Assembly (NCBI RefSeq): GCF_001598795.1
Contig: NZ_BCZP01000003.1
Location: 300,001-332,000 of the forward strand
Length of the DNA: 32,000 bases
Direction: 5' to 3'
Source: Delftia acidovorans NBRC 14950
GTDB taxonomy: Bacteria > Pseudomonadota > Gammaproteobacteria > Burkholderiales > Burkholderiaceae_C
Shown here: one piece after another, positions 20,245-22,298 of the stretch
Numbering within the stretch: the first letter of the stretch is position 1
Layout: every line of letters starts with the position of its first letter
The notes under the pieces: generated by a model
What the model was told of the DNA's origin: nothing
What the model saw: only the letters and a program-made list of their open reading frames with translations
The model's database searches: none
Position numbers and translations under genes: made by a program

Positions 20245-20262
20245 ACGGACTCAGGCCAGGGC
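20233..20262. terminator. 12-bp perfect palindrome formed by the 3' ends of the convergent HIT and adenine deaminase genes
   Basis: GCCCTGGCCTGA-acggac-TCAGGCCAGGGC. Each arm is the Ala-Leu-Ala-stop of one gene. No U-tracts. Confidence 0.6.
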
Positions 20263-21300
20263 GGCGTAGCGGGCGAACACGGCCTCCAGCTGGCGCATCC
20301 AGTGGGCGCGCTGCTGGGGTGTGACGAAGCTGGCGTCAAAGCTGTTGACCGCCAGTTGCCAGGCCTGCTGCGAGTTCATGCCCGTGGCGGCGAACAGCTG
20401 CAGGTAGTTCTCGTTCACGTAGCCGCCGAAGTACGCCGGATCATCGGAGTTGACCGTGACCTTGAGCCCTGCCTCCAAGAGCTGGGGCAGGTTGTGCTGG
20501 GCCAGGTCGGACACCACGCACAGCTTGAGGTTGGACAGCGGGCACACGGTCAGCGGCACGCCGTCGCGCACCAGGCGCTGCATCAGGGCCTCGTCGCGCG
20601 CGGCCTGCACGCCGTGGTCTATGCGCTCGGAATGCAGCACGTCCAGCGCGCCCCAGATATAGGCGGGAGGTCCCTCCTCGCCCGCATGCGCGACCAGGTG
20701 CAGGCCCAGCTCGCGGCAGCGCGCGAACACGCGGGCGAACTTCTCGGGCGGGTTGCCGACCTCGCTGCTGTCCAGCCCCACGCCGATGAAGCGGTCGCGC
20801 AGCGGCAGCGCGGCCTCCAGCGTGGCGAAGGCGTCCTCTTCGCTGAGGTGGCGCAGAAAGCTCAGGATAAGCGCCGACGAGATGCCCTGCTCTATCTCCG
20901 CATCGCGGCAGGCGCGGTACAGGCCGTTGATCACGGTCTCCATGCCCACGCCGCGCTGGGTGTGGGTCTGGGGGTCGAAGAAGATCTCTGCATGGACCAC
21001 GTTGTCTTGCGCGGCGCGCGTCAGGTAGGCGCGGCCCATGTCGTAGAAATCCTGCTCGTACAGCAGCACGCTGGCGCCGGCGTAGTAGATGTCCAGAAAG
21101 CTCTGCAGATCGGTGAAGGCATAGGCGCGGCGCAGGTCTTCCACGCTGGCGTAGGGCAGCTTCACGCCGTTGCGCTGGGCCAGGGCGAAGATCAGCTCGG
21201 GCTCCAGCGAGCCTTCGATGTGCATGTGCAGCTCGGCCTTGGGCATGGCCTGGAGCAATTGGGGCAGATGCGCGGCATCCACGGCGGGTACGGTGTGCAT
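20251..21300 (-). CDS. adenine deaminase, type 2 (adenosine/AMP deaminase superfamily; often auto-annotated as adenosine deaminase)
   Basis: Trimmed to the ATG at 21300. Contains [43 protein letters not shown] and [13 protein letters not shown]. As I recall, these resemble the pseudomonad/fungal adenine deaminase type closely. The ATG shares its A with the upstream gene's TGA. Confidence 0.85.
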
Positions 21301-22298
21301 CAGCAGACTCCGAAGGTGATGCCGCTGGCCCGGAGGTAGCGGCGGTAGGCGGACGACATGCGGTCGGCCGCAGAGTGCATTTCGGCGCGCGGGTCCAGCG
21401 GCAGGCACTTGGGCTGCTGCGACTCCAGCACGGGCTGGTCCTGGCAGAAGATGGTGTGCTGGAATTCCTGCAGCTGTGCGTCGGGCGAATCGAAGTCTGC
21501 CACGGCAAGGCGGAACCAGACGCGGCTGGTCTCGGGCGTGACGGGGCAGATGAACAGGGCGATGGACTCGCGCCAGCCGGCCCGGGTGGTGCCGGACTCG
21601 GGCAGCTTGGTCAGCAGGGCGGCATAGGGCGCCGTGACTTCGTAGGTGTACTCGACCTCGGCCGCGCTGGTGGAGTGCAGGTTGGACTGCGGCTGCACGG
21701 CCTTGCAGCCCGTGGCCAGCACGCCCGTGGCCGTGGTCTCCACGGCATAGGCTTCGATGGCCGTGGCATCGCGGCTGCCCAGCCAGCCTTCGTGGACAAA
21801 GCCGAAGTGCGACATGTCCAGGAAGTTCTCGATGATGCGCGGCGCGCTGGCGGCCACGTCATAGGGGCCGCAGTTGAGCTTGCGCAGGTGCGCGTCCGCC
21901 TCGGCTTCAAAGGCTGGAAGTGCTGCTAGGGCCGGAGCAGCCGAGAGCTCCTCGCCCGTGGCCAGCCGCACCCAGACCAGGCCGTAGGCTTCCTGTGCCT
22001 CGAAGGCCTTCACGCATTGCGAGGGCGGGGGCGTGAAGCTGGGCAGGGCCGGCACCTTGACGCACTGGCCGCTGTCGGCGAACTGCCAGCCGTGGTAGGG
22101 GCATTCAAGGTGGCCGTTCTCGACACGGCCCATGGACAGGCGTGCGCCACGGTGCGGGCAGCGGTCCACGAAGACGCGGACCAGGCCTTGCGGATCGCGC
22201 CACAGCACCAGGGGCTGGTCCAGCAGTTGCACGCCCAGCGGCGCATCGACAACTTCGTGGGCCTGGGCCACGGGATGCCAGAGGGAGTTTTCGATCAT
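21300..22298 (-). CDS. Rieske [2Fe-2S] non-heme-iron oxygenase, alpha-subunit-only type (VanA/PAO/phthalate-family-like), substrate unknown
   Basis: Trimmed to the ATG at 22298 ([11 protein letters not shown]). Rieske motif CPHRGARLS...CPYHGWQF. Mononuclear Fe motif [12 protein letters not shown] (D-x2-H-x4-H). Conserved [11 protein letters not shown]. The stop overlaps the deaminase start (TGATG, 21298-21302). No reductase gene is in the window. Confidence 0.85.

Follow-up and report, generated by a model that had tools for sequence, protein, structure and literature searches.

What does a Rieske oxygenase do when its gene is tied to that of an adenine deaminase inside a purine-uptake locus? 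The question is raised by a 32,000-nucleotide stretch of Delftia acidovorans NBRC 14950 (NCBI RefSeq assembly GCF_001598795.1, contig NZ_BCZP01000003.1, positions 300,001 to 332,000 of the forward strand), which we call the window and which has a G+C content of 67.5%. Two of its genes share a base:

22298..21300, minus strand: Rieske non-haem-iron monooxygenase gene, 332 amino acids (aa), alpha3 type, Pfam domains Rieske and VanA_C
21300..20251, minus strand: PA0148-type (cog1816, 'type 2') adenine deaminase gene, 349 aa, Pfam domain A_deaminase

We think it very probable that the 332-aa protein is a purine-directed Rieske monooxygenase, or rather its oxygenase component, working on a small planar purine base in purine-base uptake and catabolism with a reductase encoded elsewhere. 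Its substrate, regiochemistry and electron donor we infer from the comparisons below, and we tentatively prefer the reading in which, by analogy with the enzyme HpxD, it would hydroxylate a ring carbon of a deaminated oxopurine, converting hypoxanthine to xanthine and/or xanthine to urate.

The original prediction had described this gene pair from the nucleotides of the window, and its coordinates, its Rieske and iron motifs and its TGATG junction all hold under an open-reading-frame (ORF) check, Pfam searches and the gene calls of three public contigs, in which products of 332 aa and 349 aa, overlapping by one base, were likewise called. Within TGATG, the stop codon of the Rieske gene (TGA, 21302-21300) and the start codon of the deaminase gene (ATG, 21300-21298) have base 21300 in common, and to judge from this junction the deaminase gene is translationally coupled to the Rieske gene. 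The 332-aa protein carries the Rieske centre C47-P-H49-R-G ... C66-P-Y-H69-G-W and the mononuclear iron motif N158-F-L-D161-M-S-H164-F-G-F-V-H169, plus Q-D287-Q-P-V-L-E-S-Q. In a family alignment of 25 Rieske proteins, the Rieske ligands C47, H49, C66 and H69 show no variation, and the iron ligands H164, H169 and D287, with the bridging D161, are invariant both there and in the HpxD, Ndm and Sxt enzymes discussed below. Pfam scores the protein at 87 bits for Rieske (PF00355, cut-off 20.3) and at 93 bits for VanA_C (PF19112); its AlphaFold2 (AF2) model has a predicted local distance difference test (pLDDT) score of 93.8, and the Rieske protein of Delftia lacustris is 98% identical to it.

The downstream product, which had been called a type-2 adenine deaminase, keeps that assignment on its PDB matches and its NCBIfam score. 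It reaches 292 bits with A_deaminase and 564 bits with NF006850 (cut-off 419), and its E-values are 1.6e-128 to the PDB entries 3ou8/3pan and 5e-113 to 3rys, compared with about 1e-25 to true adenosine deaminases. We take 3ou8/3pan to be P. aeruginosa PA0148 and 3rys to be Arthrobacter AAur1117, both adenine deaminases (Goble et al. 2011). The 349-aa protein is thus a predicted adenine deaminase of the PA0148/AAur1117 group.

The pairing is not a peculiarity of Delftia. One genome per GTDB species was scanned, giving 80 loci (cited by L numbers where they have to be told apart) whose neighbourhoods were read by tblastn. Twenty-three of the loci belong to Burkholderiales, and 21 of these reach past the Rieske gene and can be assessed. 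The Rieske gene and the adenine deaminase (ADE) gene are adjacent in 17 of the 21, with ADE immediately downstream in 15, downstream past a 1.45-kb insertion in one and immediately upstream in one; the genera bearing the pair include Comamonas, Paracidovorax, Curvibacter, Acidovorax, Variovorax, Limnohabitans, Hydrogenophaga, Rhizobacter, Piscinibacter and Methylibium. In Acidovorax sp. GW101-3H11, a strain for which RB-TnSeq fitness data exist, the orthologue of the Rieske gene lies on NZ_LUKZ01000028.1 at about 55867-56841. Beyond the window, the junction reads TGATG in six further loci, TGAnnATG (a 2-nt gap) in another six and ATGA in one, and tight coupling of the two genes is seen in either gene order. 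The pair also occurs in an Acidimicrobiia locus (L037), in the order transporter-Rieske-ADE, with an 11-nt gap and an ADE 61% identical to that of the window. The recurrence of this adjacency is more than chance, and the expectation that the pair and its tight junction would be conserved next to transporters of the BMP family is borne out by the 17 Burkholderiales loci and the single Acidimicrobiia one. In nearly all Burkholderiales loci, and in several from Paenibacillus and Chloroflexi, the gene just before the Rieske gene encodes a binding protein. SBP2, as the Rieske-linked binding protein of the window is called here, is in most loci the only one whose gene accompanies those of the permeases. 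The deaminase is not always ADE: in Duganella and Herminiimonas, a TadA-like deaminase of the cytidine deaminase (CDA) fold adjoins the Rieske gene in its place.

The insertion just mentioned lies in Paracidovorax cattleyae (L002, 11041-12360), where a 439-aa ORF between the Rieske and deaminase genes breaks the coupling. A reductase in this 1.45-kb insert was considered and rejected; the ORF is unrelated and, by eye, glycoside hydrolase-like.

Against the PDB, the E-values of the oxygenase are 9e-48 to SxtT and 8e-45 to GxtA (saxitoxin hydroxylases), 2e-40 to NdmA and 3e-33 to NdmB (methylxanthine N-demethylases of Pseudomonas putida CBB5), and 7e-27 to DdmC, the last over the N-terminal half; template-modelling (TM) scores of the AF2 model are 0.89-0.90 to SxtT/GxtA, 0.81 to NdmA and 0.79 to DdmC. 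Pairwise identity amounts to 33% with SxtT, 32% with HpxD over the full length, 32% with NdmA and 29% with NdmB, and only 334 clusters (50% identity) match at E < 1e-30. The best solved relatives, SxtT, GxtA, NdmA and NdmB, all act on purine or guanidinium heterocycles, and together with the retained aromatic stacking residues of the NdmA pocket they bear out the earlier view of a purine-type oxygenase. HpxD has the same first four PDB matches, namely SxtT, GxtA, NdmA and NdmB. In a tree built by neighbour joining (NJ) only, with 100 bootstraps, support is 81% for a Comamonadaceae/Sphaerotilaceae clade, 81-90% for the HpxD clade, 99-100% for the Ndm clade and 91% for a Firmicutes clade, and a split found in 79% of bootstraps sets HpxD and Ndm on one side and the window clade, SxtT/GxtA, Firmicutes and Chloroflexi on the other. 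The window protein falls outside both the HpxD and the Ndm clade. By these comparisons it is a member of the purine-acting Rieske subfamily that stands in a clade of its own and is an orthologue of no characterised member.

Whether the substrate is a purine at all can be asked of the same comparisons. Database names of the relatives are generic ('aromatic ring-hydroxylating dioxygenase subunit alpha', with one automatic 'NdmA' label), and no curated NCBIfam model exceeds its cut-off for the window protein, nor for HpxD itself. Such generic names, the vanillate O-demethylase type of the C-terminal Pfam domain and the likeness of the N-terminal half to DdmC would suit a VanA- or DdmC-like enzyme that O-demethylates or ring-hydroxylates a non-purine aromatic compound, the deaminase adjacency being metabolically meaningless. 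We regard this as very unlikely, however: full-length similarity is to purine-acting enzymes only, the adjacency to a purine-binding protein and a purine deaminase recurs from family to family and phylum to phylum, with junctions that overlap or leave 2 nt, and purine-degradation genes surround homologues in Firmicutes and Burkholderiales.

The active-site pocket was analysed by alignment to the residues reported for NdmA and SxtT rather than from model coordinates. NdmA contacts caffeine through F168, F174, F223, L248, N282, V285 and F286 (bioRxiv 10.1101/2021.12.17.472166), and the corresponding residues, in this order, are:

Window protein: F159, F165, Y217, I246, Q280, I283, F284
HpxD: F, F, L, I, N, V, F
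SxtT: S, F, N, D, Y, T, I

The aromatic stacking residues of NdmA are kept in the window protein, three positions have changed conservatively or to polar residues, and four of the seven contacts are identical. All seven are invariant in the Burkholderiales clade, bar single conservative exchanges in three loci (Y, V and V, at two positions), and the pocket is identical in ADE-linked and CDA-fold-linked Burkholderiales loci. A lysine, K231, which aligns with the substrate contact S230 of SxtT, is invariant in the Burkholderiales, Firmicutes and Chloroflexi members, whereas HpxD and the Ndm enzymes have isoleucine or valine; Q202, Y217 and Y219 show the same distribution. Beside K231 lies the acidic E244, which is Burkholderiales-specific and absent from the ADE-coupled L037. 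A pocket of this kind would be better suited to an oxopurine that is small and planar, forms hydrogen bonds and is perhaps anionic than to a purine that is basic or methylated throughout.

SxtT and GxtA are the best match in sequence and structure and share with the window protein its length and its C-terminal G-V-C end. However, the SxtT substrate contacts S159, Q226, D239 and Y273 become F, A (A227), I (I246) and Q (Q280), there is no toxin cluster here, and the clade relationship is unsupported (bootstrap <=30%). An SxtT-like function was rejected on the replacement of the guanidinium-binding residues Q226, D239 and Y273.

Other homologues sit among further purine genes. In a Burkholderiales metagenome-assembled genome (MAG; L018, 6197-12623), the operon runs puuE, uraD, SBP2, ADE, Rieske and an 8-oxoguanine-deaminase equivalog (622 bits, cut-off 532), and it adjoins xdhBA and a gene for 5-hydroxyisourate (HIU) hydrolase; no recognisable urate oxidase was found within 10 kb. 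Paenibacillus L042 has the order amidohydrolase, pucB, pucA, pucD, pucE, BMP binding protein, Rieske, uricase, HIU hydrolase and allantoate amidohydrolase (pucD at 867 bits, cut-off 784), and a pucD equivalog is adjacent in Paenibacillus L044 too. In Paenibacillus L051, the genes after PucR are those of a cog0402 amidohydrolase, at the head of the transporter-Rieske operon, an ABC (ATP-binding cassette) transporter, a binding protein and the Rieske enzyme, and in L076 and L077 a cog0402 amidohydrolase gene lies directly upstream of the Rieske gene. In Bacillus L048 (7138-17894), an ABC transporter of the NMT1/THI5 type and the Rieske homologue face a set of purine-degradation genes, encoding HIU hydrolase, an FAD (flavin adenine dinucleotide) monooxygenase, 2-oxo-4-hydroxy-4-carboxy-5-ureidoimidazoline (OHCU) decarboxylase, PucR, allantoate amidohydrolase and an aminotransferase, in which the FAD monooxygenase sits between HIU hydrolase and OHCU decarboxylase; the set forms a urate-to-allantoate cluster under PucR control. 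No xanthine dehydrogenase (XDH) was found within 10 kb of this locus, and the one step missing from the neighbourhood is thus that from xanthine to urate. Clusters such as these tie the family to purine degradation across phyla.

Three unrelated deaminase families, ADE, CDA-fold and cog0402, stand beside orthologous Rieske genes, and in the Burkholderiales loci, with ADE or a CDA-fold deaminase as partner, the Rieske and SBP2 pockets stay constant. This is most easily explained if the oxygenase acts downstream of deamination, on the oxopurines that all these deaminases yield; the precedent of HpxD, the polar pocket and the gap at L048 then point to ring hydroxylation of hypoxanthine or xanthine. 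The original prediction had allowed two roles. In the first, the oxygenase would release adenine for the deaminase, a poor fit since orthologues with identical pockets are paired with CDA-fold or cog0402 deaminases; bulky N6-alkyl substrates such as cytokinins are unlikely besides, because SBP2 keeps the closed purine-base pocket of its structural relatives AtzT and 3S99 (see below). In the second, hypoxanthine would be hydroxylated without molybdenum, which holds up as a candidate but is not new in kind, HpxDE of Klebsiella being described as hydroxylating hypoxanthine and xanthine independently of the molybdenum cofactor (PMC7373994, with de la Riva 2008 and Pope 2009 as its sources), a reaction that genetic work assigned to HpxD, a distant paralogue of the window protein.

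Under our preferred reading, free purines would enter via the ABC importer and its purine-base binding proteins, and the co-translated PA0148-type deaminase would convert adenine to hypoxanthine, a CDA-fold or cog0402 deaminase taking its place in other lineages. The Rieske enzyme would oxygenate the purine ring system with O2 and electrons from the reductase encoded elsewhere, and the outcome would be a molybdenum-independent, NADH- and O2-consuming step alongside XDH.

The closeness of the N-demethylases brings in a different explanation, namely that the enzyme is an oxidative N-demethylase like NdmA, acting on a methylated purine such as N6-, 1-, 3- or 7-methyladenine or a methylguanine. 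Such a compound, derived from nucleic-acid turnover or from plants, would be imported by the SBP-Rieske module and lose its methyl group as formaldehyde, whereupon deaminase and XDH would handle an ordinary purine and no function would overlap with that of XDH. NdmA and NdmB are equally close relatives, four pocket residues are those of NdmA, and the purine-stacking phenylalanines and the N/Q...F specificity motif are kept (FQHTIF in the window protein, FNDLVF in NdmA, FQKRVL in NdmB). Gene content lends this explanation more: co-occurrence with XDH, uricase and other mainstream enzymes (L042, L044, L018 and Comamonadaceae) suggests an extra rather than a duplicate function, an orphan binding protein plus Rieske gene forms a two-gene add-on within the Paenibacillus puc cluster, the window order SBP-Rieske-ADE matches the order of such a pathway, and L039 and L040 combine several paralogues with a reductase in an NdmD-like arrangement. 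Yet a near-invariant pocket that goes with ADE, CDA-fold or cog0402 partners is hard to square with a single methyl-aminopurine, and service as the lone binding protein of the permeases in most loci would be odd for an SBP2 devoted to a rare substrate. The invariant lysine, tyrosine and glutamine residues also set the pocket apart, as more polar, from the hydrophobic one of Ndm enzymes; the window protein lies outside the well-supported Ndm clade; the window locus is without NdmD, NdmE and NdmC partners, and no formaldehyde-handling or NdmD/NdmE-like genes were found in the loci of the clade; and the context is core purine-base catabolism, not caffeine degradation. On balance we judge demethylation unlikely.

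L018 raises the other possibility, that a different purine is hydroxylated. This could be an aminopurine before deamination, with adenine going to 8-oxoadenine or isoguanine, or guanine to 8-oxoguanine, and the neighbouring deaminase acting on the product; or it could be urate at C5, giving 5-hydroxyisourate, in which case the Rieske enzyme would be a new type of urate hydroxylase, the four urate oxidase types already known being uricase, HpxO, HpyO and PuuD. The best hint is L018 itself, where the Rieske gene lies between ADE and the 8-oxoguanine-deaminase equivalog with no known urate oxidase within 10 kb. An 8-oxoguanine-deaminase-like gene also lies near the ADE-coupled L037, E244 beside K231 could read an amino-oxo purine, and the tight coupling to a deaminase in either gene order would fit as well. 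On the other hand, E244 is missing from L037, PA0148-type enzymes are characterised as plain adenine deaminases, and urate hydroxylation would be redundant where uricase is the next gene (L042) or an FAD monooxygenase is present (L048). We know of no precedent for such a reaction, and rate this explanation, too, as improbable.

Ring hydroxylation of hypoxanthine or xanthine has to be set against HpxD in detail. The two proteins share the Rieske subfamily, the four best PDB neighbours, a similar length (343 aa in HpxD, 332 aa here) and the pocket residues F159, F165, I246 and F284 (window numbering), and both genes belong to purine-catabolic surroundings, with purine deaminase and transporter genes and a LysR regulator as neighbours. 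In contrast, the window protein belongs to a separate clade, has Lys231, Tyr217, Tyr219 and Gln202 in its pocket where HpxD has hydrophobic residues, and lacks the adjacent VanB/HpxE reductase that accompanies hpxD in Pantoea, where tblastn of plasmids recovered the annotated hpxD of Pantoea dispersa with its PDR/VanB reductase (HpxE; L081, 9974-10936) next to it; its gene is coupled to ADE, and true XDH is commonly co-located in its clade. Orthology of the window LysR protein with the hpxD-linked LysR was rejected, 23% identity being uninformative.

Several of these observations, and others, weigh against the preferred reading. XDH comes first. The absence of XDH from the window had been used as an argument for a molybdenum-independent route, and tblastn does find neither XDH nor a VanB-type reductase in the 32 kb; as an argument this fails, because true xdhA and xdhB lie divergently upstream of the lysR-ABC-SBP2-Rieske-ADE operon in 12 of the 23 Burkholderiales loci (TIGR02963 at 578 bits, cut-off 467; TIGR02965 at 1112 and 1265 bits, cut-off 850). 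The Delftia window, by comparison with its relatives, has merely lost their xdhAB adjacency. With xdhA/xdhB by the operon in these loci and pucD by L042 and L044, a second (hypo)xanthine hydroxylase looks redundant, and Delftia (Comamonas) acidovorans has an inducible XDH. The protein is not an HpxD orthologue, as the 79% split attests, and where it has K231, HpxD has isoleucine or valine. Searches by tblastn with HpxE found no HpxE/VanB-type reductase in the window, nor did any of the clade's Burkholderiales loci yield one, and such genes turned up only in L039, L040 and L069. The original prediction that the reductase is encoded elsewhere is thereby supported, and a partner at another locus would still be compatible with membership of the Rieske oxygenases. 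Neither in the window nor in 15 related proteobacterial loci did a riboswitch, whether of the xanthine (NMT1-motif) class or another, attain the gathering score of Rfam, and the literature searched held no experimental data on any member of the clade.

We take seriously the possibility, which we think quite conceivable, that the enzyme is not a second (hypo)xanthine hydroxylase but catalyses a step so far not known from purine breakdown in bacteria: oxidative removal of a methyl group from free methylated adenines or guanines that nucleic-acid turnover sets free, hydroxylation of an aminopurine at C8 or C2 ahead of a dedicated deaminase (as in guanine to 8-oxoguanine to urate), or 5-hydroxylation of urate by a Rieske enzyme. 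A step outside (hypo)xanthine hydroxylation would explain both the retention of the gene beside a complete XDH pathway in many genera and the clade-specific active-site lysine.

Coexistence with XDH has a precedent. In Aspergillus nidulans, the alpha-ketoglutarate-dependent xanthine hydroxylase XanA is found alongside XDH, a molybdenum-independent enzyme next to a molybdenum one. Under the reading that we prefer, the Rieske enzyme would carry out the same net ring reaction as XdhAB/PucCDE and the fungal XanA, with unrelated folds and cofactors, and it would consume NAD(P)H and O2 rather than yield reducing equivalents. Rieske oxygenases on purines and HpxDE as a molybdenum-independent xanthine hydroxylase are known in kind; what is distinct here is the separate clade, the active-site lysine, the lack of a dedicated reductase, the coupling to ADE and the coexistence with XDH. 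Rieske dioxygenase genes, deaminases and transporters under xanthine/urate OFF-riboswitches have already been tied to purine oxidation (PMC7373994), but neither this clade nor a pairing of a Rieske enzyme with adenine deaminase was the subject of any paper that full-text searches brought up. The gene families of L048 are those reported under xanthine riboswitches in Proteobacteria.

Purine-base degradation has been treated as solved, in the form of deaminases, molybdenum XDH and urate oxidation. The genes described here add a well-conserved extra oxygenase, which in Comamonadaceae and related Burkholderiales is part of the core purine operon and in Paenibacillus and Bacillus is found within puc-type clusters. 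Should hypoxanthine or xanthine be what it hydroxylates, the molybdenum-independent HpxDE-type route would extend far beyond Enterobacteria and coexist with XDH, which bears on growth under molybdenum limitation; if another reaction is the true one, it would be a new entry reaction for modified or oxidised purines. Either way, another member joins the few Rieske enzymes active on purine-like heterocycles, a group of interest for biocatalysis.

The genes around the pair bear on what the locus imports, and comprise:

28838..29782, minus strand: LysR-family regulator (Pfam HTH_1 and LysR_substrate), upstream of the transporter genes
28817..28832, minus strand: terminator-like hairpin and T-run after the LysR gene (pattern scan)
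27128..28717, minus strand: ABC transporter ATPase with two fused ATP-binding domains (Pfam ABC_tran, two stretches)
26035..27189, minus strand: ABC permease 1 (Pfam BPD_transp_2)
25115..26041, minus strand: ABC permease 2, start approximate as its ORF is long and opens well before this point (BPD_transp_2 covers residues 212-476 of that ORF)
23894..25066, minus strand: SBP1, BMP-family purine-binding protein (Pfam Bmp), an extra copy found only here and in Comamonas
23853..23872, minus strand: strong terminator-like hairpin after SBP1, 8 pairs of which 6 are G-C, then TTTTTCT (pattern scan)
22486..23643, minus strand: SBP2, BMP-family purine-base binding lipoprotein (Pfam Bmp), the copy that always lies directly upstream of the Rieske gene
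22375..22442, minus strand: two perfect GC-rich hairpins in the SBP2-Rieske spacer, without a T-run (RNAfold of the 187-nt spacer)
19804..20244, plus strand: HIT-family (HinT-like) gene, converging on the deaminase gene with 6 nt between the stop codons
18503..19609, minus strand: SBP3, BMP-family binding protein with a third pocket type (Pfam Bmp)
17098..18462, minus strand: guanine deaminase (E 2.3e-101 to E. coli guanine deaminase 6ohb)

The gene upstream of the pair had been described as encoding a purine/nucleoside-type binding protein on the same strand. Strand and BMP family stand, and the nucleoside part does not, the pocket being of the purine-base type seen in AtzT. The start codon of SBP2 is the ATG at 23643; the gene has GAGGAA as its ribosome-binding site, the protein carries the lipobox LAGC, and its E-values are 2.8e-122 to AtzT (6pi5) and 5e-112 to Brucella 3S99. 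For AtzT, the dissociation constant (Kd) is 0.11 uM with guanine and 2.5 uM with adenine, while the binding site of 3S99 was modelled with adenine (PMC6834077). Mapping the published AtzT contacts Y45, S97, F98, E165, N169, W194, N218 and N220 onto the paralogues gives these pocket types:

AtzT (reference): Y S F E N W N N
SBP1: W S F E N W N N, AtzT-like
SBP2: Y T F E N W N D in the window; Y/W T/S F E N W N D in all Rieske-linked copies
SBP3: W S F E G W Q A in the window; W S F E G W H/Q G/A in guanine deaminase-linked copies

SBP2 is identical to AtzT at six of the eight contacts, with S to T and N to D at the others, and 3S99 also has D at the last position. On these residues the importer is a purine-base importer, not a nucleoside importer. 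Three binding-protein paralogues, each tied to a different neighbour, further suggest an arrangement in which one permease would be served by several base-specific binding proteins. The pairing of SBP3 with guanine deaminase is kept in L001, L004, L007, L014, L016 and L064, and in the window a dCTP deaminase gene follows guanine deaminase in minus-strand order. The best NCBIfam match of the ATPase is a BMP-type ABC ATPase, under its cut-off; orthologues of permease 2 align across about 308 aa; and tblastn places a LysR gene upstream of the ABC genes in L001, L005, L007, L009-L011, L013, L015, L016 and L064 as well.

How the pair is transcribed can be addressed from the spacers. The hairpin after SBP1 suggests that SBP2, Rieske and deaminase genes can form their own transcription unit in this genome, and about 210 nt of non-coding DNA lie ahead of the SBP2 start. 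Between SBP2 and the Rieske gene, the homologous spacers of L001, L005-L008, L010, L012, L016 and L027 were compared with that of the window by RNAfold; most of the relatives' spacers have a terminator-like hairpin and a T-run 15-40 nt before the Rieske start. The spacer hairpins suggest that transcription continues, in attenuated form, into the enzyme genes and does not begin at a promoter of their own.

Some relatives of the Rieske gene have settings of their own. In Acidimicrobiia MAGs, L039 (about 5300-7186 and 9364-10942) and its mirror image L040 combine a BMP ABC transporter with two or three paralogues of the Rieske gene, and have a VanB-like reductase gene close downstream of a short Rieske-domain match, the arrangement likened above to NdmD; both are candidate multi-site purine N-demethylase systems outside Proteobacteria. 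A fusion of the Rieske protein to a deaminase or reductase was looked for and rejected, the sole long relative (P0141, 693 aa) being a tandem of two Rieske oxygenases. In a gammaproteobacterial MAG (L023, 8892-10954), paralogues from the HpxD side and the window side of the tree stand in tandem, followed by a major facilitator superfamily (MFS) transporter; this was dropped as a context clue, the surrounding mobile and restriction genes making it uninformative. An HpxD-clade Rieske gene is carried by the mobilisable Acinetobacter johnsonii plasmid NZ_CP068202.1 (L082, 5477-8969), next to genes for a 2-oxoglutarate/Fe(II) oxygenase, a hypothetical protein, a truncated BMP binding protein and a LysR protein, in a setting of insertion sequence (IS) elements and a group II intron.

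The HIT-family gene is kept at its spot in Comamonas (L001) and Acidovorax (L007) only. Elsewhere in the window (941-1981, 13676-16322, 34-957 and 30008-31999) lie genes for tryptophan 2,3-dioxygenase, for NadA and NadB of NAD synthesis, for a fusion of an Ada-like AraC protein with O6-methylguanine methyltransferase, and for a DUF6351 tannase-like protein, the last of which stands where relatives carry xdhAB.

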